Below are positions 5,216 to 53,349 of a stretch of DNA of 64,000 nucleotides, piece by piece. This stretch comes from Clostridia bacterium. GTDB taxonomy: Bacteria > Bacillota > Clostridia > UMGS1883 > UMGS1540. Position numbers and translations under genes: made by a program. Within the stretch, counting starts at the first letter, position 1. Each line of letters begins with the position of its first letter. A model generated the notes under the pieces. It ran no database searches and had not been told where the DNA came from. It saw only the letters and a program-made list of their open reading frames with translations. Location: NCBI GenBank assembly GCA_017620205.1, contig JAFZQX010000010.1:5534-69533 (forward strand). The letters run 5' to 3'.

Positions 5216-6540
5216 TGCTTTTCTCCGTTTCTTTCTCTGATTATAAATCTTACGGGCGTACCCGTGAGCCCGAACGTTTCGCGGATTCTGTTTTCAATGT
5301 AGCGCACATATGAAAAATGCGCAAGCGTCGCGTCGTTTACAAAAAGGATGAAGGTAGGCGGCTTTGTTCCTGCCTGCGTCATATAATAGATTTTAAGGCG
5401 CTTGCCCTTATCGGACGGCGGCTGAACCTTTGCCGTAGCGTCGTTTAAAACGTCGTTTAAAGTGCCCGTTGAAATGCGGCGCGTATTTTGCACATAAACT
5501 TCTTTTACTCTCTCAAACAGATTATCTATTCTCTGGCCCGTTTTGGCGGAGATAAACTCAATGGGCGCGTACTGCATAAAGCTGAGTTTATCGTATACGT
5601 TTCTTTTAAATTCGCCCATTGTTTTTGTGTCTTTTTCTACTGCGTCCCATTTATTAACGGCAACAACAATGCCCTTGCCGCCCTCGTGCGCGTAGCCCGC
5701 GATTTTCGCGTCCTGCTCGCTGACGCCCTCTTCGCCGTCTATCATAATAAGCGCGACGTCGCTTCTCTCAAGAGCCGCCAGAGCGCGGATGACGCTGAAA
5801 CGCTCAATGTTGTCGGTCACCTTGCTTTTGCGGCGTATTCCCGCCGTATCTATGAAAATATACTTTGTCCCGTCTTTTTCAAAATATGAGTCAATAGCGT
5901 CGCGCGTTGTACCCGCTACGCCGCTTACTATCATTCTGTTTTCGCCTAAAATTTTGTTTATAAGAGAGCTTTTGCCTGCGTTCGGCTTTCCTATAACGGC
6001 AACTTTTATATCGCCCTCAGCTGTTTCGTCTTCTCCCTCTTCGGGGAAGTATTTGAAAACCTCGTCAAGCAAATCGCCTACACCCATTCCGTGAATTGAT
6101 GAAACGGGCATGGGCTCGCCTAAACCGAGGTTATAAAATTCGTATAAAGACATCGGCGGCTCACCGGGGGAGTCTACCTTGTTGCATGCTACAACAATAG
6201 GCTTTGAAGCCTTCTGAAGCATTGCGGCAACTTCCATGTCTGACGCCGTCATGCCGTCACGCGAGTCAACAACCAAAACGGTTACGTCGGCTGTGTCTAT
6301 GGCTATCTCCGCCTGCACGCGCATCTCGGCTAAAACCGCGTCGCCGCCCGCGGGCTCAATACCGCCCGTATCGATTATAATAAACTGTCTGCCGTTCCAC
6401 TCCGCGTCTGCGTAAATTCTGTCCCTCGTTATGCCGGGAGTGTCCTCGACAATCGAGATGCGTTTGCCCGCTATTTTATTAAAAAGAGTTGATTTTCCTA
6501 CATTCGGGCGACCTACAATCGCCACAATCGGTTTTGCCAT
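5212..6540 (-). CDS. der: Ribosome-associated GTPase Der (EngA), two GTP-binding domains
   Basis: Two G-domains (GRPNVGKSTLFN and GKPNAGKSSLIN) plus a KH-like C-terminus. Start chosen at the ATG giving MAKPIVAIVG, with RBS AAGGA upstream; the ORF-track start at 6555 is 5 codons longer. Confidence 0.85.
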   Translation of the reverse strand: MAKPIVAIVGRPNVGKSTLFNKIAGKRISIVEDTPGITRDRIYADAEWNGRQFIIIDTGGIEPAGGDAVLAEMRVQAEIAIDTADVTVLVVDSRDGMTASDMEVAAMLQKASKPIVVACNKVDSPGEPPMSLYEFYNLGLGEPMPVSSIHGMGVGDLLDEVFKYFPEEGEDETAEGDIKVAVIGKPNAGKSSLINKILGENRMIVSGVAGTTRDAIDSYFEKDGTKYIFIDTAGIRRKSKVTDNIERFSVIRALAALERSDVALIMIDGEEGVSEQDAKIAGYAHEGGKGIVVAVNKWDAVEKDTKTMGEFKRNVYDKLSFMQYAPIEFISAKTGQRIDNLFERVKEVYVQNTRRISTGTLNDVLNDATAKVQPPSDKGKRLKIYYMTQAGTKPPTFILFVNDATLAHFSYVRYIENRIRETFGLTGTPVRFIIRERNGEKQ

Positions 6541-6551
6541 AATCTGTCCTT

Positions 6552-7847
6552 TCAATCACCTTTGATTTTATCCCATAAATCGTATCCCGAGCAGTCGGTA
6601 ACTATAATATCGGCGCCGAGCGCTTCGCGAACGTTTGTAACCGTGGTGTCGTCTAAAAACGTTTCCGTTCCGTGACGGAGCATAACGCTCGGTATCAAAA
6701 CGCGCCGGCTTTTTATTTTCCCCTTAAGCTGTTTTATAATGTCGCCGCCCGTTATAAGACCTGCAACGGTTATCCTCTCGCCGAAGAAATCGTTGCGCAC
6801 CGTGTGCACCGCTATATCCATATTATTATATCGCGTTTTTGCCATGTTTGCAAGCTTTTTTATCTCATCTCCCGCCGCCATTCCGGTTATAATATCGGCG
6901 GCCGCAGAGCCTTTGGGAGCGCTGTTTAAAGCATCCGAAAATTCATCGTGCATACTGCGTATGAGTCCCACTCCGTTTTCGATTTGGTGATACCCTTCGT
7001 ATTCTTCCTCTGCGGGGATGGGGTATCCCGCCGAAAGATAAAACTCGTCCGCACCGTAAATAAAGCGCGTCCCGAGCTTATTAAGGCAGTCCTTCTGCAT
7101 TTTTAAAATATCGTTTAAAACTGTCTTGCTGTCCTCTTTTTCAAAAGGCTGTGCGCAGTACAGGTTTTCGCGGAATTTCGTTATTCCCATAGGCACAGCC
7201 GAAACGCTTGTGACATAGGGGTAGAGTGACGCAAGATCGCTTACCGTTTTGTAAAACTCCGCACCGTCGTTTACGCCTTTGACGAGAACTATCTGGCAGT
7301 TCATATGTATGTGTCCCGAAGCGAGGCGCCGCATCTGCTCCATTATCCTCTCCGCCTTCGGGTTTTTAAGCATAAACTTGCGCAGACACGGGTTAGTAGT
7401 GTGAACGGATACGTTTATAGGCTCCATGTGCATGCGGATGATTTTATCGAGATCGCTGTCCTTTGCATTTGTCAGCGTTACGTAATTTCCCGTAAGAAAA
7501 GAAAGGCGTGAATCGTCGTCTTTAAAATAGAGGGATTCGCGCATGCCGCGGGGGAGCTGGTCGATAAAGCAGAAAATGCACTTGTTTGCGCAATGCTTTG
7601 CACCGCCGAAAAGCGCGCTTTCGAAAATAACGCCCAGTTCCTCGCCGTACGGATTTTCAATTTCTATTATTTCGCGCTCGCCGCCCGTAATAACTTCAAG
7701 CTCAATTACTTCGCCGCAGAAATAGAATCTCAAATCCAGCTCATCTTCAATTTTATGGCCGTTGCAGGAAACAATTTCGTCTCCCGGCTGAAGACCGAGT
7801 TCCTCGGCAATACTGCCGGGCTCGACAGCCTGAATTTTGTTATTCAC
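6552..7847 (-). CDS. PDZ domain plus DUF512 (radical-SAM-like) protein
   Basis: N-terminal PDZ-like segment (GSIAEELGLQPGDEIVSCNG) and a Cys cluster (CANKCIFCF). This is the conserved position upstream of der in Clostridia. Confidence 0.6.
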   Translation of the reverse strand: MNNKIQAVEPGSIAEELGLQPGDEIVSCNGHKIEDELDLRFYFCGEVIELEVITGGEREIIEIENPYGEELGVIFESALFGGAKHCANKCIFCFIDQLPRGMRESLYFKDDDSRLSFLTGNYVTLTNAKDSDLDKIIRMHMEPINVSVHTTNPCLRKFMLKNPKAERIMEQMRRLASGHIHMNCQIVLVKGVNDGAEFYKTVSDLASLYPYVTSVSAVPMGITKFRENLYCAQPFEKEDSKTVLNDILKMQKDCLNKLGTRFIYGADEFYLSAGYPIPAEEEYEGYHQIENGVGLIRSMHDEFSDALNSAPKGSAAADIITGMAAGDEIKKLANMAKTRYNNMDIAVHTVRNDFFGERITVAGLITGGDIIKQLKGKIKSRRVLIPSVMLRHGTETFLDDTTVTNVREALGADIIVTDCSGYDLWDKIKGD

Positions 7848-8301
7848 GGGTATTCTCCTTAAGTCTTCTGTCTATATCGCGTTTAGCGTCGCGCTGAGCC
7901 ATTGCCTCGCGCTTGTCATACTGTTTCTTACCTTTGCAAAGACCTATCTCCATCTTAACTCTGCTGCCCTTAAAATATAAAGATAAAGGGATAATGGTGC
8001 AGCCTTCTCTCTGCACCTGACCGAAAAGCTTTAAAATCTCTTTTTTGTGCATCAAAAGCTTTTTGTCACGCATTGGGTCTTTGTTGAATATGTTGCCGTG
8101 CTCGTATGGCGTTACATGAACGCCCGTCGCAAATATCTCACCGTTTTTAATTTCGCAGTAGCTGTCCTTAAGGTTTACTTTGCCCGCACGGATAGATTTA
8201 ACTTCCGTGCCGAACAGCTCAACTCCCGCCTCATATTTATCTAAAACAAAATAGTCGTGATACGCTTTTTTGTTGTTTGCTATAGTTTTATTATCCATCA
8301 T
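7840..8301 (-). CDS. smpB: SsrA-binding protein SmpB
   Basis: 153 aa. Matches the SmpB consensus (KTIANNKKAYHDYFVLDKYEAGVELFGTEVKSIRAGKVNLKDSY). Confidence 0.9.
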   Translation of the reverse strand: MMDNKTIANNKKAYHDYFVLDKYEAGVELFGTEVKSIRAGKVNLKDSYCEIKNGEIFATGVHVTPYEHGNIFNKDPMRDKKLLMHKKEILKLFGQVQREGCTIIPLSLYFKGSRVKMEIGLCKGKKQYDKREAMAQRDAKRDIDRRLKENTRE

Positions 8302-10337
8302 TTTCCTCCGAGAATAAAGTCGATAAATCCCGCTTCGCGGTCAACTCCCGCCGCCGAAACGTGCACGCTGTCGCCTATTTTATATCTTTTTCCGTGTCTT
8401 TTGCCGTAAAGGCTTAATGTTCTGTCGTCATATTCGTAATAATCGTCCGTAAGGTCTTCAAGACGCACTAAGCCTTCAACGCAGTTTGGAAGCTCCGCAA
8501 AAAATCCGAAGGACGTAACCGATGAAATTATTGCGTCAAATTCTTCGCCCAAGTGCTTTTCCATATATTCGCATATCTTAAGCTTTGTGGCTTCGCGCTC
8601 CGCGTCCATAGCTTCAAGCTCGCGCACGGACGACTGCTCCGCCGCTTCCGCCGTAAATCTTATGGTTTTGCTGTCAAAGTCTTTGCCGTTTAATGCGGCT
8701 TTTATCATTCTGTGGCAAACAAGATCGGGATATCTTCTTATAGGCGACGTAAAGTGGCAGTAAAAGTCTGCGCCGAGGCCGAAATGACCTTTGTTCTGCG
8801 CGTCATATTTGGCCTTTGCCATAGAACGGAGCATGACGGTGTTTATAGCCTTTTCATACGGCTCGCCTTTGCAGGCATCAAGTATTTCCATAAGCTTTTT
8901 ACCCGAAGGCTTGCCTATAAGCTTAAAATCAAAAAGTGACATAAACTTTCTTAAATCGTTCATCTTTTCGTCATCGGGCGTCTCATGCACTCGGTATACA
9001 AAAGGTATACCGGAAAGGGACGCGTGCTTTGCGAGCGTGCGGTTGCAAACGAGCATAAATTCTTCAATTATTTTATGCGAAACCGTGTGCTCTTCGGGCA
9101 CAACGTCTATCGCTTTTCCTTCACTGTCAAGTATAATGCGCGGTTCGGGAATATTAAAATCCATACTTCCTTTTTCAAAACGGCGTGCCCTGAGCGTTTT
9201 TGAAAGCTCTGCCATGCCGTAAAGCATATCGCGTATCTTTTCATATTTTTCCCAATATTCGCTTTTTTCGTTTTCGAGCATATCCGTAACGTCTTCGTAG
9301 ACAAGGCGGAAATCTGAATTTATTATTGACTCATAAACTTCGTGCGACAAAACCTTGCCGTCTTTTGAAATTTTCATTTCGGTTGTAACGGCGAGTCTGT
9401 CTTCCGCGGGGTTTAAGCTGCAAACGCCGTTTGATAAAATCTGCGGCAGCATGGGGCAGACCCTGTCGGGAAAATAACAGCTTGTGCCGCGTGAAAACGC
9501 CTCTTTGTCAATAGCGCCGCCGAAACGCACAAAATGTGAAACGTCTGCAATGTGAACGTAAAGCGTATATTCCGTGTCGGTTTCTTTAAGCGATATAGCG
9601 TCGTCCAAATCTCTTGCGTCAGCACCGTCTATGGTCACTGTTAAAAGAGAGCGCAGATCGCGTCTGCCCTTTGTTTCAAGACTGTAATCGGAAACCTTAT
9701 CGGCCTCAGCCAAAACGCTTTCGGGAAAGTCCTGCGAAACGTTGTGCTTCTGCATGATAGCAAGAAGCGCGCTTTCGGGACTGTCGAAAAGACCGAGATT
9801 TACAATAACTTCGCCGCGCATATTTTCGTAATCCGTGATTTTTACCGTAACGCGGCAGTTTTCGAAAGTCTCTGACGGCTCGGCTATGATGATATCACAG
9901 GGCGCATCGTTTGTTTCTACCTTGCCGTTTTTGTAAAGACCGGTAAAGGTACTTGCCGCGCGCTCCAATATCTCCGTGATTTTTCCTTCTCTGCTGTGTG
10001 ATGTGCCCGTAATCTGAAGAATACGCACCACGTCGCCCGTGAGCGCCGTGCCGCAGTTTTCGGGCGAAATATAAAAATCGCCCTCATCCGTTTCGACAAA
10101 GCCGAAGCCCTTGCGGTTTAAGCGGAATTTTCCGCAAAATGAGCCTTTTGTTTTGGTGGCTTCAAATCTGCCGCCGCGAAGCCTTCTTACTTTGCCCTCA
10201 TCCTCAAGCTCGTAGAGCAGGGTACAAAGCTCCGAAAGGCAGTCTTCCGCGTCGAGCATCAGCGCTATTTCATTAGGTGTCAGCGGAAATTTTGCCTGAT
10301 CGCGCAAAAACCCGAGGAGTTTTTCTTTTTTTGTCAT
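8298..10337 (-). CDS. rnr: Ribonuclease R
   Basis: RNB catalytic domain, N-terminal cold-shock-like segment and C-terminal S1 domain. Start set at the ATG giving MTKKEK; a GTG three codons upstream at 10346 is also possible. Confidence 0.85.
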   Translation of the reverse strand: MTKKEKLLGFLRDQAKFPLTPNEIALMLDAEDCLSELCTLLYELEDEGKVRRLRGGRFEATKTKGSFCGKFRLNRKGFGFVETDEGDFYISPENCGTALTGDVVRILQITGTSHSREGKITEILERAASTFTGLYKNGKVETNDAPCDIIIAEPSETFENCRVTVKITDYENMRGEVIVNLGLFDSPESALLAIMQKHNVSQDFPESVLAEADKVSDYSLETKGRRDLRSLLTVTIDGADARDLDDAISLKETDTEYTLYVHIADVSHFVRFGGAIDKEAFSRGTSCYFPDRVCPMLPQILSNGVCSLNPAEDRLAVTTEMKISKDGKVLSHEVYESIINSDFRLVYEDVTDMLENEKSEYWEKYEKIRDMLYGMAELSKTLRARRFEKGSMDFNIPEPRIILDSEGKAIDVVPEEHTVSHKIIEEFMLVCNRTLAKHASLSGIPFVYRVHETPDDEKMNDLRKFMSLFDFKLIGKPSGKKLMEILDACKGEPYEKAINTVMLRSMAKAKYDAQNKGHFGLGADFYCHFTSPIRRYPDLVCHRMIKAALNGKDFDSKTIRFTAEAAEQSSVRELEAMDAEREATKLKICEYMEKHLGEEFDAIISSVTSFGFFAELPNCVEGLVRLEDLTDDYYEYDDRTLSLYGKRHGKRYKIGDSVHVSAAGVDREAGFIDFILGGK

Positions 10338-14094: not shown

Positions 14095-14250
14095 TTTCTT
14101 TTATACATTGCAAAGCCCCCTTTGTTCGCGGATTGCTCCGTGTTTTTAAAGACTTGCTTACGACATGCCTGCCGTGGGACATCCGCCGAAAAATTCGATA
14201 CTCCCCAACCTCGTCTGCCTGCCGTCTGCCCAGCAGGTACCGGCGCTTTT
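14095..14250 (-). ncRNA. glmS ribozyme: glmS ribozyme (GlcN6P-responsive self-cleaving riboswitch) in the glmS 5' leader
   Basis: The minus strand reads AGCGCCGGUACCUGCUGGGCAGACGGCAGGCAGACGAGGUUGGGGAGUAUCGAAUUUUUCGGCGGAUGUCCCACGGCAGGCAUGUCGUAAGCAAG... It contains the invariant core CGAAUUUUCGGCGGAUG and the 5' AGCGCC cleavage-site context of the glmS ribozyme. Confidence 0.85.
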
Positions 14251-14314
14251 TTGCTTTTACTCAGACCTTTCTTAAGATTTGGCAAACTTTATTAATATAT
14301 AAATATACATAATA

Positions 14315-15783: not shown

Positions 15784-16419
15784 TTGAACGAAGCAAATCT
15801 TTATAAAGAACTTGGGACATTGACAAAGGACAAAGATAGTTGGAAAGAGAGCATTCCTTATGTTTCATCGCTTCTTTCTTATGATTCTGTAAAGATAAAG
15901 GCAAAAGCGCTGTGGATGCTTGGTGAGATGGGGTTTAGATACCCTCTTCCGGTACAGAAATCCTTACCTGCAATAGCGTCCTTTTTAAATAGTGCAGAGC
16001 CGCTTTTACGTGAGCGCGCGGTAAATGCTCTCGGCAGGATAGGAAGAGCCGATTACCAACTGATTGAGCCTTATTGGGAAAACCTGTTTCGTTTTGCTTC
16101 GGATGAGCAACCAAAGGTGAGGTTAAGCTTCATTTGGGCATCGGAAAATATCGCTACAAACACACCGGATATTTACAAGGATTATATTCCGATATTTGAG
16201 GGACTACTGAGCGACTCAGATGATAAGGTAAGGATGGAAGCGCCGGAAATTTTCCGAGTGCTCGGCAAACGCAGACCAGAGTTCATCAGACCGTATCTGG
16301 AAGGGTTGTGGCAGAAATCTGAAACAGACAGTAACCGTGTAGTAAGAATTCACTGTTTGGGTGCGATTAAAGCATCCGGGCACGGCTCTCCTGTCAACAC
16401 AAAGCACACGGACAAATAA
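15784..16419 (+). CDS. HEAT-repeat domain protein
   Basis: Repeated helical units of the form LRERAVNALGRIG / DKVRMEAPEIFRVLG. Confidence 0.5.
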   Translation: MNEANLYKELGTLTKDKDSWKESIPYVSSLLSYDSVKIKAKALWMLGEMGFRYPLPVQKSLPAIASFLNSAEPLLRERAVNALGRIGRADYQLIEPYWENLFRFASDEQPKVRLSFIWASENIATNTPDIYKDYIPIFEGLLSDSDDKVRMEAPEIFRVLGKRRPEFIRPYLEGLWQKSETDSNRVVRIHCLGAIKASGHGSPVNTKHTDK

Positions 16420-16447
16420 CCTTTTACATACAGAAAGGACCATTGTT

Positions 16448-17086
16448 ATGAAATTTAAAACACTTATAATACTGCAGCTCGGCGGCATAGCCCTGTTTGT
16501 GCTTTTTACGGCGGTTTTGTATTTTACAGGTCTGTTTAATCCCGTAAGCGCAGTGCTCGTTTATATTCTGCTCGGCGTCGGGAATGTTTTAAACGCGCAT
16601 AATATTCTTATGAAGCCTATTGAAGAGATAAGCATACACGATAATCTCACGGGCTGCTATAACCGCACAAAGCTTGAAAGCAAGATACCGCAATACGAAA
16701 AATATCATAACTATGCGGTGATTTTCTTTGATCTTGACAACCTTAAACTGATAAACGACACATACGGTCATGACGACGGCGATAAAATTCTTGTAGAAGC
16801 TGCAGAAAGGCTTCGTATATGGCAGGAATACGGCGATCTGTACAGAATAGGCGGCGACGAATTTTTAGTTGTTGTACCAAATATAGATCAGCCGCTTCTT
16901 GAAGAAATTCTGTCCGCTTGGAAAGAAAAACAGACAGAGCTAAACGCTGATTACGGCGCTGATTATAAATGTGAGTTCAGCTACGGCGCGGCATATAAAA
17001 CGGAAGATGAGCCGCTGACGTTTGAAGAAGCTATGAACATCGCCGATGAAAAAATGTATGAAATGAAGAAAAGCGGCAGGGCTTAA
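16448..17086 (+). CDS. Diguanylate cyclase (two N-terminal TM helices plus GGDEF domain)
   Basis: RIGGDEFLVVV active-site motif. Start set at the ATG giving MKFKTLII, with RBS AAAGGA upstream. The longer ORF-track start at 16361 overlaps the upstream gene. Confidence 0.75.
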   Translation: MKFKTLIILQLGGIALFVLFTAVLYFTGLFNPVSAVLVYILLGVGNVLNAHNILMKPIEEISIHDNLTGCYNRTKLESKIPQYEKYHNYAVIFFDLDNLKLINDTYGHDDGDKILVEAAERLRIWQEYGDLYRIGGDEFLVVVPNIDQPLLEEILSAWKEKQTELNADYGADYKCEFSYGAAYKTEDEPLTFEEAMNIADEKMYEMKKSGRA

Positions 17087-17108
17087 TAACAGAAAGGATC
17101 TGTAGAAA

Positions 17109-18011
17109 ATGTATTATAAAAATGTGCTCGACTTAATAGGGAATACTCCGCTTTTAAGCTTGGAGGAGACAACGGGATTTAAGATTTATGCAAAAGCGGA
17201 GTTTTTAAATCCGGGCGGCAGCATAAAGGACAGAATAGCTTTAAATATGATAGAAGAAGCGGAAAAAGACGGAAGACTGAAACCCGGTATGACGATAATT
17301 GAGCCTACATCGGGCAACACGGGCATAGGCCTTGCGCTTTGCGGCGTAAGAAAAGGATATCATGTAATAATAGTTATGCCCGAGAATATGAGCGAAGAAC
17401 GAAAAAAGATAATCCGCGCTTTGGGCGCGGAGCTTGTTTTAACAGACCCGAAGCTGAGCATCGCGGGCTCAGTTGATAAAGCTATGGAGATTGCAGAAAG
17501 CTCGCCGGATTACTTTGTTCCGCAGCAGTTTCAAAACCCGGCAAATCCGCAGATGCACTATAAGACGACGGCTGTAGAACTCTGTGAACAGCTTGGTAAA
17601 AAAATAGACGTATATGTATCGGGTATCGGCAGCGGCGGCACGCTCCAGGGCGTAAGCCAATATCTTTTAGAGAAAAACCCCGACTGCAAAATAGTTGCGG
17701 TTGAGCCGAAAAACGTATCGGCACTTTTGGGTGATGAGCCGGGACTTCATCAGATACAAGGCATAGGCGACGGCTTTATTCCCGATATTTTAGATACATC
17801 TATTATCACCGATATCATAGAGGTTACGGACGATGACGCTATAAACACCGCGAGAGAGCTTGCACGTGTTCAGGGGCTTTTAGTCGGCACTTCATCGGGT
17901 GCAAACGTATGGGCGGCAGAGCAGATGGCTGAAAAATACGGAAAAGACAAAGTTATAGCAACCGTACTGCCCGACCGCGCGGAAAGATATTTCAGCACGG
18001 CGCTTATATAA
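17109..18011 (+). CDS. cysK: Cysteine synthase A (O-acetylserine sulfhydrylase)
   Basis: PLP lysine motif GGSIKDRIAL, TSGNTGIGLA, and the GIGSGGT loop. Confidence 0.85.
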   Translation: MYYKNVLDLIGNTPLLSLEETTGFKIYAKAEFLNPGGSIKDRIALNMIEEAEKDGRLKPGMTIIEPTSGNTGIGLALCGVRKGYHVIIVMPENMSEERKKIIRALGAELVLTDPKLSIAGSVDKAMEIAESSPDYFVPQQFQNPANPQMHYKTTAVELCEQLGKKIDVYVSGIGSGGTLQGVSQYLLEKNPDCKIVAVEPKNVSALLGDEPGLHQIQGIGDGFIPDILDTSIITDIIEVTDDDAINTARELARVQGLLVGTSSGANVWAAEQMAEKYGKDKVIATVLPDRAERYFSTALI

Positions 18012-18038
18012 AACCAAAAGTTTTGGGAGTGTGTTAAA

Positions 18039-18851
18039 ATGGCTGATTACGGACTTCAAAACAAAGTGGCAATAATCACGGGCGCGAATAATCCACAGGG
18101 GATAGGCGCTGCGACGGCTATGGCGTTTGCCCGTGAAGGCGCGAAAGTCGTTTTGGTATATAAGAAAATAAAAAGACCGTTTGATAAAAGTAAGACAGCC
18201 GAAAACGGCGTTGACAGATATTACGAAGCAAACGCGGGAAACGCCGACAAAGTAGCCGCAAAGCTTAGGGAGATAAACGCGGATTGTCTTTTGCTCGAAA
18301 GCGATATTTCAGATGAAAACGCCGTAAAAGAGATTTATTCTGCGGCAGAAGAGAAATACGGAAAAGTAGATATACTCGTAAACAATGCGGCCACAGACGA
18401 TGAAAACGGTTTTGATACGATAGAGAAAATAACTCAAAGAGTAATAGACGATACGTTTGCCGTAAACGTCCGCGGAAGCCTTTTAATGACAAGGGAATTT
18501 ATAAACCGCCGCGGCGATTACGGAAGAATTATAAATATCTCAACCGACGCCGCGCAGGCTTTCGCAGGGCAGATAACATACGGCGCGAGCAAAGCGACCC
18601 TGGAAGCTTTAACAAGAAGCATAGCGCTCGAAGTGGGAAAGTACGGAATTACCGTAAACTGCGTAGCACCCGGCCCTACCCAGACGGGGTGGATTGACAA
18701 AGACCTCGAAAAAGCGGTTGTGCCTTTAATTCCCATGGGCAAACTGATTGGGCCCGACGATATTGCAGATACAATTTTGTTTTTGGCAAGCGAAAAGGCA
18801 AAAATGCTTACGGGGCAGGTTATAAAAGTTTCGGGCGGACACGCGCTTTGA
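18039..18851 (+). CDS. SDR-family oxidoreductase
   Basis: Rossmann TGANNPQGIGAA, NNAA, and YGASKA catalytic Tyr-Lys. Confidence 0.75.
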   Translation: MADYGLQNKVAIITGANNPQGIGAATAMAFAREGAKVVLVYKKIKRPFDKSKTAENGVDRYYEANAGNADKVAAKLREINADCLLLESDISDENAVKEIYSAAEEKYGKVDILVNNAATDDENGFDTIEKITQRVIDDTFAVNVRGSLLMTREFINRRGDYGRIINISTDAAQAFAGQITYGASKATLEALTRSIALEVGKYGITVNCVAPGPTQTGWIDKDLEKAVVPLIPMGKLIGPDDIADTILFLASEKAKMLTGQVIKVSGGHAL

Positions 18852-18868
18852 AGTTTAAACTATAAATT

Positions 18869-18900
18869 AAAGGCTGAGGCAATTTTTTGCCTCAGCCTTT
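18869..18900. terminator. Bidirectional terminator between the SDR gene and the HD-GYP gene
   Basis: Perfect hairpin aaaggctgaggc-aatttttt-gcctcagccttt. Confidence 0.6.
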
Positions 18901-22680: not shown

Positions 22681-22791
22681 CAAATTCTGATTTGTGAGAT
22701 AAGGGGACGGAGCTGTTGTTTTGGGATTAAGACAACTGAGCCGCCCTCTTGCTTTTTGCAAAGAAAAACGGAGCAAAGCCCATTCCGACGA

Positions 22792-23355
22792 GGCGCGCTG
22801 TAAGGGATAAAGCCGCCTGCGGCGTCTTTCCTGCTCGGCGACCTTAAAAATAGTTAATCGCGAAAAAGTGGTAGCGAGCCAAAGGCGTTATGAGGGCGCT
22901 TGCAACCGAATAGCCGACGTGAGCGTGCTTTTTTGCGAAAGAGGAGGAGCAAGGGATCGGGCGGATGTTTTTATGTAAAGAAAAACGAAGCAAAGCGGAC
23001 TTCGCTCCGACGAGCCTTCGCACCACGCGCCTACAAAACATGCCACAGGCATATTTTGCCGGGCGGCGCGTGCCCCCTCGGTGTTCGAATCCCTTCCACC
23101 GCAAAAAAAAATATACCGCGCATACCGGGTGATATACTCGGGATATTGGCGCGCTGTAAGGGATAAAGTTTTGCTTCGCAAACCTTTCCTGCTCGGCGAC
23201 CGAAAGCCTCGCTTTCAGTACCCGCCTTCGCACCACGCGCCTACAAAACATGCCACAGGCATATTTTGCCGGGCGGCGCGTGCCCTCTCAGGGTTCGAAT
23301 CCCTTCCACCGAAAAAAAATATACCGAGCATATCGGGTGATATACTCGGTATATT
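22792..23355. repeat. Tandem degenerate repeats (one 356-bp unit, then one 208-bp unit), each beginning with the tRNA-Arg 3'-end sequence GGCGCGCTGTAAGGGA and ending with the tRNA-Arg terminator hairpin
   Basis: GGCGCGCTGTAAGGGA occurs at 22792, 23148 and 23356. A roughly 150-bp segment (cttcgcaccacgcgcctacaaaacatgcc...gggtgatatactcgg) is duplicated with a few mismatches. Inside each unit there is a tRNA T-arm-like GGGTTCGAATCCCTTCCACC. Confidence 0.7.
23312..23353 (-). terminator. Rho-independent terminator immediately 3' of tRNA-Arg
   Basis: Minus strand shows hairpin aatataccgag...ctcggtatatt followed by an 8-T run. A second copy lies at about 23104-23147. Confidence 0.6.
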
Positions 23356-23431
23356 GGCGCGCTGTAAGGGATTCGAACCCCTGACCTACTGGTCCGTAGC
23401 CAGTCACTCTATCCAGCTGAGCTAACAGCGC
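23355..23431 (-). tRNA. tRNA-Arg: tRNA-Arg (anticodon ACG), CCA encoded
   Basis: Minus strand reads GCGCTGTTAGCTCAGCTGGATAGAGTGACTGGCTACGGACCAGTAGGTCAGGGGTTCGAATCCCTTACAGCGCGCCA. Anticodon loop CUACGGA. Confidence 0.85.
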
Positions 23432-23512
23432 AAAAAAATCAGCAAAATTTATTATAGCACACTTTGAAACAAAAAGCAAATGTTTTTTAAAAAAATTTTT
23501 ATCCCGTCTTCT

Positions 23513-39459: not shown

Positions 39460-40106
39460 GCATAGCCGATTTTAAAAACAATTCTCCGGGGGCAAAGCGA
39501 GGAGTAAATTTTACGGCATAGGTCCGAGTAGGATTTCCCGCAGGCATTCCCGTGCGTCGCCGCTTCGGGAGGTTTCCCATTAAATGCCGCCCGTCAAAGA
39601 CGGAACCGGATTACCACTAAGTCCGCACTGCAATCCTCATCGCCTTTTCGGGAAGTCTCAAAAGAGATTACCCGAAACAGCCTAGGAGATTTCCTCGACA
39701 GTCACACCAATTCTTATCCTCTATTGCAAACATAATTTCAAACAGCAATAACCGCCGCATTGTTGGCCGGCAAATTGGGGTCTGATCTGTTATCCTTCAT
39801 GCCCACTCAAGGAAGGCTACTCTGCAAACAGCACAAATGCGCACCGCTAAACAGGTTTAATCCTAAGTCGTACTTTGTTTTTGTCGTAAAATTCGAGCAA
39901 CTTCGAAAGCACAATCATAGGTCTCCACGGAAAAGGGGACAAGCTCCGCATGCCATTGCGGTTTGCCCCTGAACCTTAACCCCCAGCACAAACCCCCGAC
40001 TGGGCGTCGGAAGCCTGCACCAGGAACTTCATCGATGTGCCCTTTAACGGATTTTTAGGCCCGTCCTGGGAAAAGGCTGAACTGACTAGGATACTGCGCC
40101 ACCCGT
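39460..40106 (-). ncRNA. About 650-nt GC-rich structured non-coding transcript; candidate OLE-like large ncRNA
   Basis: A 920-bp ORF-free interval noticeably GC-richer than the flanking DNA. A near-consensus sigma-A promoter (TTTACA-17-TATAAT, minus strand, -10 at 40114-40119) points into it. It contains stable GC stems and a UUCG-type loop (gccgcttcgggagg). No RNase P P4, tmRNA tRNA-like end or SRP domain IV motif was found. The gene order ncRNA-small TM protein-dxs-tlyA equals the known ole-oapA-dxs-tlyA locus. Confidence 0.45.
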
Positions 40107-40113
40107 CAAGCGT

Positions 40114-40142
40114 ATTATAGCACAAGATAAGCATATTGTAAA
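40114..40142 (-). promoter_or_regulatory. Sigma-A promoter driving the ncRNA/oapA/dxs transcript: TTTACA-17-TATAAT
   Basis: Minus-strand TTTACA at 40137-40142 and TATAAT at 40114-40119. Confidence 0.55.
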
Positions 40143-53153: not shown

Positions 53154-53159
53154 ATACCA

Positions 53160-53349
53160 TAGATTTCAGGGCGGGGTGCAATTCCCCACCGGTGGTAAAG
53201 CCCACGAAGGATTTCCAAAAATCCCCGATCCGGTGTAATTCCGGAGCCGACGGTGATGGCAAAGCTTTTGTCAAAGTCCGGATGAGAGAAGTCGATATGG
53301 TGTTATATTGTCACGCCCTGAGAAGATTTATTTGAAAGGGTGTTTTTTT
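53160..53349 (+). ncRNA. FMN riboswitch (RFN element) with intrinsic terminator overlapping the ribU start
   Basis: TTCAGGGCGGGGTGCAATTCCCCACCGGTGGTAAAGCCCACGA...CCGGTGTAATTCCGGAGCCGACGGTGA...AAAGTCCGGATGAGAGAAG matches the RFN consensus. The terminator acgccct..agggtgtTTTTTTT spans 53313-53349. Confidence 0.85.

Follow-up and report, generated by a model that had tools for sequence, protein, structure and literature searches.

The 64,000-nt stretch of Clostridia bacterium DNA analyzed here (the window) contains, at positions 22681-23431, a tandem array of a structured element that lies behind the tRNA-Arg(ACG) gene and comprises one intact and two truncated copies. The interior of this element is a conserved, strand-specific, covarying multi-helix sequence that recurs behind particular tRNA genes, and the family is apparently undescribed. 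The best explanation, to which we assign a probability of about 0.55, is that the element gives rise to a structured RNA that derives from the tRNA transcription unit and displays a mimic of the 3' end of its tRNA. This reading is favored by the architecture of the element together with the constraint observed in syntenic copies.

A tandem array behind tRNA-Arg(ACG)

The original prediction, made from the letters of the window, held that the 3' end of tRNA-Arg occurs three times in this region and that only the last site is a full tRNA. Both statements proved correct: GGCGCGCTGTAAGGGA, the complement of the last bases of tRNA-Arg, matches exactly at three sites (22792, 23148, and 23356) without a further exact match in the 64 kb, shuffled sequences giving a mean of 0.59 matches with up to three mismatches allowed, and a single tRNA, at 23355-23431, is called by ARAGORN and Rfam. 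The other tRNA genes of the window (Thr, Asp, and Gly) are all located away from the array. The duplication of a block with point differences was also borne out. The duplicated unit of approximately 210 bp (23014-23164 versus 23224-23372) is 95% identical, as are its two parts, 23014-23113 versus 23224-23323 and 23104-23164 versus 23312-23372, with a spacing of 208 to 210 bp. The T-arm-like plus-strand string GGTTCGAATCCCTTCCACC that had been noted in it occurs twice, at 23082 (1 mismatch) and 23292, with a chance expectation of none, and the accompanying hairpin with its T run is a minus-strand terminator. A further repeat, CTTTCCTGCTCGGCGACC, was found at 22826 and 23184.

The unit had furthermore been thought to carry an extra insertion of some 150 bp with its own short internal repeat. 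This repeat is present (22753-22779 versus 22970-22996, 89% identity), but there is no insertion into the unit. Instead, 22844-23013 is a spacer between truncated copies; over 150 nt it shares 76% identity with the spacer between the copies of another locus, L055, and the apparent insertion is thus the junction of a 3'-truncated and a 5'-truncated copy. The two open reading frames (ORFs) at 22844-23251 and 23081-23425 exist as described and, since they run across the tRNA and the repeats, are very probably spurious. On the minus strand, the order is tRNA, terminator T, element copy E1, terminator T', element copy E2, a terminator plus spacer, element copy E3, a last terminator-like segment, and the 3' end of a nitroreductase gene. 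The features are as follows.

23451-23461, minus strand: probable extended -10 box TGTGCTATAAT, about 20 nt upstream of tRNA-Arg (read from the sequence)
23355-23431, minus strand: complete tRNA-Arg(ACG) gene, CCA encoded (ARAGORN; Rfam tRNA, 63.3 bits)
23355-23372, minus strand: X1, the last 18 nt of tRNA-Arg, which constitute the repeated segment, ATCCCTTACAGCGCGCCA
23310-23354, minus strand: terminator T, a 17-bp hairpin and T8 run directly after the tRNA CCA (terminator scan)
23147-23307, minus strand: E1, intact element copy of 161 nt, subtype B (nhmmer, E=1.3e-22)
23299-23305 / 23158-23164, minus strand: helix P1 of E1
23290-23293 / 23283-23286, minus strand: helix P1.1 of E1
23275-23282 / 23234-23241, minus strand: helix P2 of E1, enclosing hairpin H2 (23258-23267 / 23245-23254)
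23230-23232 / 23190-23192 and 23223-23226 / 23195-23198, minus strand: helix P3a of E1
23212-23218 / 23200-23206, minus strand: helix P3b of E1
23165-23187, minus strand: P4 hairpin of E1
23147-23164, minus strand: X2 of E1, a copy of the last 18 nt of tRNA-Arg
23147-23157, minus strand: single-stranded tail ACAGCGCGCCA of E1
23103-23146, minus strand: terminator T', second copy of T, 3 substitutions; equals T in strain L001
23014-23097, minus strand: E2, 5' fragment only of an element copy (P1 5' strand, degenerate P1.1, P2/H2)
22844-23013, minus strand: terminator-like hairpin CGGAGCGAAG..CTTTGCTTCG with T run, then a long spacer of about 170 nt (terminator scan)
22792-22843, minus strand: E3, 3' fragment only of an element copy (P3 3' strand, P4 hairpin GACGCCGCAGGCGGC, X'' = ATCCCTTACAGCGCGCC)
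22757-22791, minus strand: last terminator-like segment TCGTCGGAATGGGCTTTGCTCCGTTTTTCTTTGC, related to the start of 22844-23013
TTG start 21922, stop 22680, convergent: TM1586-type nitroreductase gene (ORF and Pfam annotation)

The extended -10 box of the tRNA-Arg promoter is probable, although it was not reported by the consensus scan. The 5' start of E1, GGAAGGGATTCGAACCC, is the exact complement of the T-loop and T-stem of tRNA-Arg, and its predicted fold (minimum free energy, -74 kcal/mol; z=-3.2) has the same closing stem as the covariation model described below. E2, which is 95% identical to E1 (nhmmer E=1.8e-10, model positions 3-75), is truncated after GGTGCGAAGGC. Compared with E1, the P4 hairpin of E3 (nhmmer E=4.5e-8) carries compensatory changes; it is identical to that of L215, a related metagenome contig in which the same terminator T follows the tRNA, together with a single intact copy of the element.

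The element recurs behind seven tRNA species

Related loci were collected by two scans: one genome per species was scanned with the 16-nt tRNA-Arg end (at least 120 loci), and metagenomes were scanned with the 5' motif of the element (at least 120 loci), tRNAs being called with ARAGORN. Using two alignments, representing subtypes A and B, nhmmer detected at least 159 element copies in at least 126 of 243 loci; like the numbers of loci on which they are based, the family counts are lower bounds. At least 17 species-level genomes harbor two or three copies of the 16-mer at intervals of 135 to 295 nt; a full tRNA-Arg precedes them, and the interior is homologous. Tandem arrays of two or three copies are common across the loci. 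The carrier genomes are labeled Acutalibacteraceae, Oscillospiraceae, or "Clostridia," and the element is also present in gut metagenomes. Among the matches listed of the genome scan, approximately 20 of 71 tRNA-Arg(ACG) loci contain the element.

In the metagenome loci, the 5' motif is located 36 to 74 nt behind tRNA genes of the same strand, and no instance of it was found inside an opposite-strand tRNA among the loci scanned with ARAGORN. The upstream tRNA is most often Arg-ACG (53), followed by Ser-GGA (16), Arg-CCG (7), and Ser-CGA (6), and also includes Gln-CTG, Arg-TCT, and Arg-CCT. Both ends of the element match this tRNA. Its start is the complement of the tRNA T-arm (AAGGGATTCGAAC), and the bases 5' of GGGAT track the tRNA, CCCTT occurring with AAGGG, CCCTC with GAGGG, and CCCTA with TAGGG; L017, for example, has TTCGAGTCCC in the tRNA and GGGACTCGAAC in the element. 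Its terminus corresponds, in 51 of 64 cases, to the last 18 nt or so of the adjacent tRNA with no more than 2 mismatches, at a distance of 109 to 139 nt past the motif. This tRNA-end copy is followed by a terminator-like hairpin in 72 of 85 distinct flanks, compared with 11% of random 60-mers. The T-arm GTTCGAATCCC is present in 83 of 86 element-bearing tRNAs, a statistic that is biased by the search pattern. Exceptions to the match with the local tRNA include L124 and L196, where an end of the Ser-GGA type is found behind tRNA-Ser(CGA); L202 has an intermediate sequence.

Several members depart from this layout. In subtype "C" (L046, L105, L116, and L027), the 5' motif and P2/H2 are kept, and the 3' half is A-rich and apparently unstructured. 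The terminal tRNA-end copy is absent in L116, L128, L131, L159, and L222. In L066 (1-150), the 5' part of the element is replaced by the end of an apparent IS30-type insertion sequence (IS), with an opposite-strand ORF that starts MSYTHLTIEER. As for mobile replicons, a blastn search of the region against plasmid and phage collections returned nothing meaningful, and three of four repeat patterns had no match in viral contigs, the fourth leading to two ordinary copies, L122 and L123. In L122, an IMG/VR contig classed as viral, the core is situated behind tRNA-Arg(CCG) and its end, ATCCCTTCGGGCGGGCCA, is the 3' end of that same tRNA with one mismatch. In L123, likewise classed as viral, no intact tRNA is present upstream; the element is preceded by a terminator and is cut off by the end of the contig.

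A covarying fold on the tRNA-sense strand

The 88 distinct full copies comprise 37 of subtype A, 44 of subtype B (including that of the window), and others. The element is about 130 to 165 nt long, and the fold of the family consists of four or five helices that are kept by compensatory changes. For subtype A (31 non-redundant sequences; model of six helices), 88.4% of the alignment cells are paired, whereas sliding the partner columns by 1 to 3 positions reduces this value to 39 to 46%; double-sided changes were observed in 22 of 39 pairs, and none of 500 shuffles reached any of the five measures. The corresponding values for subtype B1 (15 sequences including the window copy, alignment A3) are 89.9% versus 39 to 46%, with double changes in 25 of 45 pairs and again 0 of 500 shuffles.

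The structure belongs to the tRNA-sense strand. G-U pairs are present on this strand at G47-U72 in 15 of 31 sequences of subtype A and at U91-G110 in 12 of 15 sequences of subtype B1, which on the opposite strand become C-A or A-C mismatches, and the RNAalifold energy is better on the tRNA-sense strand. The hairpin loops are mostly GNRA (GGGA, GGAA, GAGA, GCAA, GUAA, and GAAA) or CUUG tetraloops, along with GNA triloops, and in one hairpin a tandem G-A motif gives way to Watson-Crick pairs in L181. The unpaired junctions show almost no variation, as exemplified by UUCGAACAAGGAGGGA in subtype A. Within this junction (alignment A2, columns 16-24), the invariant AAGGAGG is a perfect Shine-Dalgarno sequence, with no conserved start codon downstream; at the same position, subtype B has GAGAGGG, which is paired with CCCU.

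Helix P1 is formed by the 5' AAGGGAU and the AUCCCUU of the terminal tRNA-end copy. It thus joins the first and the last segments of the element and leaves the tail ACAGCGCGCCA, which corresponds to the acceptor strand and NCCA, unpaired. No convincing pairing partner supported by covariation was identified for this single-stranded tail within the core, the tail types being too few. At syntenic tRNA-Arg loci of different species, the element copies differ by compensatory changes, which argues for long-term constraint at the level of the host, beyond the moment of transposition.

Copy number changes and recombination between copies

The copy number of the unit in relatives, a check named in the original prediction, does vary, with 0, 1, 2, or 3 copies per locus. 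In the element-free relatives L008, L035, L039, and L109, the same terminator is followed directly by the flank. A filled site therefore equals an empty site plus "spacer + core + X + terminator," X being the tRNA-end segment, so that X and the terminator are duplicated. A comparison of the window with the near-identical metagenome strain L001 revealed 3 differences in 751 nt, all of them within T', and T' of L001 is equal to T, which suggests a recent gene conversion between the terminator repeats. The two terminators are near-identical within many genomes and show compensatory differences between species, a pattern of concerted evolution.

Copies at different tRNA loci also recombine. Read in the minus orientation (6076-9180), L200 contains tRNA-Ser(GGA), an element, a hybrid element with an Arg-type end, an interval of 2.4 kb, and a Ser-type element. 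This interval encodes a TetR regulator and a major facilitator superfamily (MFS) transporter, and the flank at TetR is the same as that following the Arg-locus copy in L206. It is the combination of the hybrid copy and the L206-type flank that points to recombination between loci.

Integrases and neighboring genes

The tRNA-Arg(ACG) gene is an integration hot spot in relatives, and integrases are encoded near some of the copies, among them those in L074, L206, L006, and L180. A search for the repeat near integrase genes had been suggested; it succeeded inasmuch as such genes were found, but those examined (L074 and L206) belong to unrelated islands. L074 (560-6640) harbors an island with a tyrosine integrase, split into two ORFs, a helix-turn-helix regulator, and a DnaB-like helicase, and the integrase of the island in L206 (1858-8950) is 57% identical to that of L074. 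Both islands are 6 to 7 kb in size and possess arm-type direct repeats (tttgtacac... / ggtctttat...). They cross over in the anticodon loop, their attR comprising tRNA positions ~33-77, up to the CCA, and their ends are unrelated to the element. At L206, the tRNA is followed by the island, the integrase, a partial tRNA, the terminator, the element, and X. The island has thus pushed the old 3' part of the tRNA, the terminator, and the element 7 kb downstream, which identifies the element as resident DNA that lies outside the island.

The absence of an integrase, as stated in the original prediction, applies to the family: no recombinase is located between the short repeats at any locus, and neither recombinases nor transposases nor reverse transcriptases were found between or beside these repeats at the loci examined. 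Among 206 non-redundant ORFs within 2.5 kb of the copies, no protein family recurs beyond orthologous flanks. The neighbors inspected include a lipoprotein-like protein (signal peptide identified by eye), a TetR regulator, transporters, glycosidases, and the like.

Interpretation and alternative explanations

If the folded molecule is RNA, as we infer, its synthesis would require transcription past the first terminator and would stop at the following one, in the manner of a tRNA. It would start at or near AAGGGAUUCGAAC and end at the ...NCCA or at the next terminator. By imitating the 3' end of the cognate tRNA (the "3'-tRF" segment), such an RNA may serve as a mimic or decoy for a factor that acts on tRNA 3' ends. 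Its copy number, between 0 and 3, would shift through unequal recombination at the repeated "tRNA end + terminator," with gene conversion keeping the repeats alike. The chances are roughly even that the family represents either a new class of structured bacterial RNAs in tRNA trailers, with a tRNA-specific 3'-end mimic, or a self-propagating element on tRNA units. In the former case, the 5' anti-T-arm would pair with the built-in 18-nt tRNA copy, there would be versions tailored to Arg, Ser, and Gln tRNAs, and the mimic could function as a decoy or sensor, or have a regulatory role, with respect to enzymes, toxins, or fragments targeting the 3' ends of tRNAs.

A number of observations weigh against the RNA reading. 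Transcription of the element is a prediction from its sequence, no conserved promoter was seen in the spacers between the first terminator and the element, and this terminator looks strong in the window (17-bp stem, T8), which may make sense transcripts rare. That the element serves as a decoy is conjectural, and no protein family co-occurs with it in cis. Only about one member in three has a P1 that continues into the acceptor strand, and in a few members (L189 and L191) the 5' motif does not track the tRNA. Covariation, G-T wobbles, GNA/GNRA loops, and sheared G-A pairs also fit a folded single-stranded DNA, and an origin by DNA insertion also explains why 72 of 85 copies are followed by a terminator. 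The occurrence behind seven tRNA species, the tandem arrays, and the empty sites in relatives would likewise be expected of a mobile element. Furthermore, the metagenome sample was chosen by the 5' motif, and hence the conservation of this motif and the T-arm statistic are partly circular; the genome sample was drawn by the tRNA end, independently of the 5' motif, and its architecture is the same.

These points lead to an alternative that we regard as possible, albeit rather unlikely, namely, that the element is mobile, miniature, and non-autonomous and acts in the form of folded single-stranded DNA, similar to integron attC or CTX-phage attP sites. The 5' motif and the tRNA-end copy would then pair into a duplex resembling the T-stem/acceptor portion of a tRNA gene, a trans-encoded recombinase, HUH enzyme, or reverse transcriptase would insert the element at tRNAs with a GGGTTCGAATCCC T-arm, and arrays would grow through repeated insertion. 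The spread of one core behind at least 7 tRNA species with a terminal repeat matching the local tRNA is explained more easily in this way. Arrays of 2-3 copies, empty sites in relatives, and the "mismatched" copies in L124 and L196 (Ser-GGA end at Ser(CGA)) and in L200 (Arg-type in a Ser array) also speak for it. The GTTCGAATCCC T-arm in 83 of 86 element-bearing tRNAs agrees with such a target, but this number carries the bias of the search pattern. The strand-specific structure contains many C-GNA-G triloops, which are very stable in DNA; its unpaired junctions, however, are invariant, unlike those of attC sites. The 2.4-kb TetR and MFS segment between two copies in L200 resembles a cassette, but it is accounted for by recombination of a Ser copy with an Arg copy, given that the Arg copy of L206 has this flank as well. 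None of the copies examined is linked to a recombinase, transposase, or reverse transcriptase, although a recombinase could act in trans, and the integrases that were found and examined belong to the unrelated islands with a crossover in the anticodon loop. The helices of orthologous syntenic copies in different species are preserved by compensatory changes, a state that would not be upheld in immobile copies by selection for transposition only. Miniature inverted-repeat transposable elements (MITEs) have terminal inverted repeats, short target-site duplications of fixed length, and copies dispersed over many contexts. In the element, there is a 7-nt inverted terminal match (AAGGGAT/ATCCCTT), one arm of which lies within the direct repeat, and the duplicated segment measures 18 to ~65 nt; all copies are situated behind tRNAs.

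The two explanations contained in the original prediction fare less well. According to the first, integrase-bearing elements repeatedly integrated at tRNA-Arg and were imprecisely lost, with the repeats as their attL/attR-type scars, as in cis-mobilizable elements (CIMEs). The att-like character of the repeats is real, the direct repeat being the 17- to 18-nt 3' end that is typical of integrases targeting tRNA 3' ends, in other genomes as well as in the window; integrase islands do occupy tRNA-Arg(ACG) in L074, L206, L006, and others, and elements are known to accumulate in tandem at att sites. Nonetheless, the repeat pairs of the genome loci, 135 to 295 bp apart, enclose no integrase gene or remnant, the islands observed use another crossover and have unrelated ends, and the element is resident DNA with a covarying interior that is strongly constrained in structure, conserved across an order-level group, and found also behind other tRNAs. 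This explanation is thus largely refuted, and we consider it improbable. According to the second, a terminator module was privately amplified by slippage, as a local duplication only. In its favor, the units are arranged head-to-tail and are 95% identical, the copy number differs in relatives, and the repeats are being homogenized. Slippage or unequal recombination does account for the copy number in the window but not for the nature of the unit, which is found in more than 120 other loci, in many species, and behind other tRNAs, with covariation, so that only the step from one to three copies is explained. As a full explanation, slippage is refuted by the comparative data, and its probability is minimal.

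Other candidates were tried and rejected. A convergent plus-strand tRNA or pseudogene for GGGTTCGAATCCCTTCCACC has no 5' acceptor partner and no ARAGORN call, and the covariation and G-U pairs favor the minus (tRNA-sense) strand. The view that H2 is an old tRNA terminator and the core a stacked fossil of "tRNA end + terminator" is insufficient, given that H2 of subtype B is the tip of the covarying P2 and that the other helices are not terminator-like. The layout does not fit, as judged by eye, a hammerhead, group II intron domain V, T-loop motif, retron, diversity-generating retroelement, or CRISPR-like array, nor does it fit IS200/IS605 or IS91 ends, a casposon-type target duplication, or the logic of a retroviral primer-binding site (PBS), and no corresponding enzyme is encoded nearby.

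Relation to known systems

In searches with Rfam 15, tRNA was the only family detected in the array, both at the gathering score (whole window) and at E<=10 (the region and a subtype-A copy). The best non-tRNA scores were those of SpF41 (32.7 bits; gathering threshold [GA], 52; tRNA plus terminator) and the ylbH leader (27.7 bits; GA, 50). Apart from tRNA-Arg, no tRNA or transfer-messenger RNA (tmRNA) was called in the array by ARAGORN or by Rfam to E<=10, and the same holds for subtype A. We found no description of the element in the literature, a check that did not extend to unnamed candidates in large motif catalogues (e.g., PMC8040213).

The element resembles several known systems in part but departs from every one of them in a defining feature. 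In the att repeats of tRNA islands and in CIMEs, direct repeats of a tRNA 3' end also flank a gene-less segment, in tandem and with variable copy number; the element, however, has no integrase in or next to any copy, real islands lie outside it, and its interior is covarying and the same behind seven tRNA species, with neither arm-type sites nor decaying DNA. The tRNA-like domain of tmRNA, YrlA, and viral tRNA-like structures share with it the acceptor strand with an NCCA end and T-arm-derived sequence, and all of these could be read by tRNA-end enzymes. In contrast to them, the element lacks a cloverleaf, a T-loop, and a 5' acceptor strand and carries the complement of the T-arm instead; it mimics one specific neighboring tRNA and changes with that tRNA. 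Small RNAs (sRNAs) from 3' external transcribed spacers (3'ETS) of tRNAs, such as 3'ETS-leuZ of Escherichia coli, are short, unstructured sponges located upstream of the operon terminator. As with these sRNAs, a functional RNA would derive from the trailer of a tRNA transcription unit, but the element is 130 to 165 nt long, is multi-helical, lies past a terminator, and has a copy of the tRNA end at its own end.

Similarities to attC and CTX-phage attP sites comprise a strand-specific imperfect palindrome whose ends pair (P1), covariation, and a head-to-tail arrangement beside a fixed attachment point. However, no IntI- or Xer-type partner was found near the element, there is no R/L-box consensus, and the unpaired sequence is highly conserved; the "cassettes" between element copies are only terminators, and the neighbors are unrelated housekeeping genes. 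BOX, REP/BIME, ERIC, and RUP are structured intergenic repeat families and, like the element, are dispersed, modular, and hairpin-rich, with several copies per genome that are sometimes in tandem and downstream of genes. The element differs from them in being restricted to the 3' flank of particular tRNAs in a fixed orientation, in its deep conservation with covariation, and in having terminal segments that are copied from or complementary to the adjacent tRNA. Finally, the 18-nt 3' segment of tRNAs is the partner of retroviral PBSs and corresponds to tRF-3a fragments. The repeated segment is exactly this T-loop-to-CCA 18-mer, a resemblance only: it is a sense copy, not the complement, on the structured strand, and no reverse transcriptase is encoded nearby.

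Should the element be a true RNA, it would constitute a class that is widespread in abundant gut and rumen Clostridia and for whose design we found no described counterpart, namely, a conserved scaffold with two programmable ends, one complementary and one identical to a specific tRNA. It would also offer a concrete handle on the poorly explored biology of bacterial tRNA 3' ends, with processing, CCA metabolism, 3' fragments, end-directed toxins or transferases, and priming as candidate processes. Should it be a mobile element acting as folded DNA, it would represent a new mode of targeting tRNA genes that does without a linked recombinase. Under either reading, the element accounts for a class of "partial tRNA" repeats that annotation pipelines would mistake for integration scars or spurious ORFs, and, as a dispersed repeat, it gives rise to rearrangements between tRNA loci such as that in L200.

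Additional observations

In L017, L066, and L122, the approximately 150 nt past the last terminator consist of short GC hairpins and direct/inverted ATATCATC / GATGATAT repeats. This block is common to loci with different upstream tRNAs (Arg-ACG versus Arg-CCG), and in L023, where the motif search detected no element, it comes immediately after the tRNA terminator. Candidate interpretations of the block are an operator-like sequence and a further repeat family.

The window and strain L001 differ elsewhere. At ~15900-18900 of the window, compared with 1-2815 of L001, the latter has a gene of the nonribosomal peptide synthetase type (AMP-binding and Condensation domains) and the window has other ORFs; this apparent break in synteny, upstream of a shared permease/HD-domain gene, derives from an ungapped comparison with 2207 mismatches. 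The source of the window is a spore-forming member of the Clostridia that bears OLE RNA. Rfam also identified other structured RNAs in the window: a full-length OLE (ornate, large, extremophilic) RNA (448 bits; 39473-40118, minus strand), which is a marker of an anaerobic Firmicute, a glmS ribozyme (14102-14258, minus strand), and a flavin mononucleotide (FMN) riboswitch (53158-53297, plus strand).

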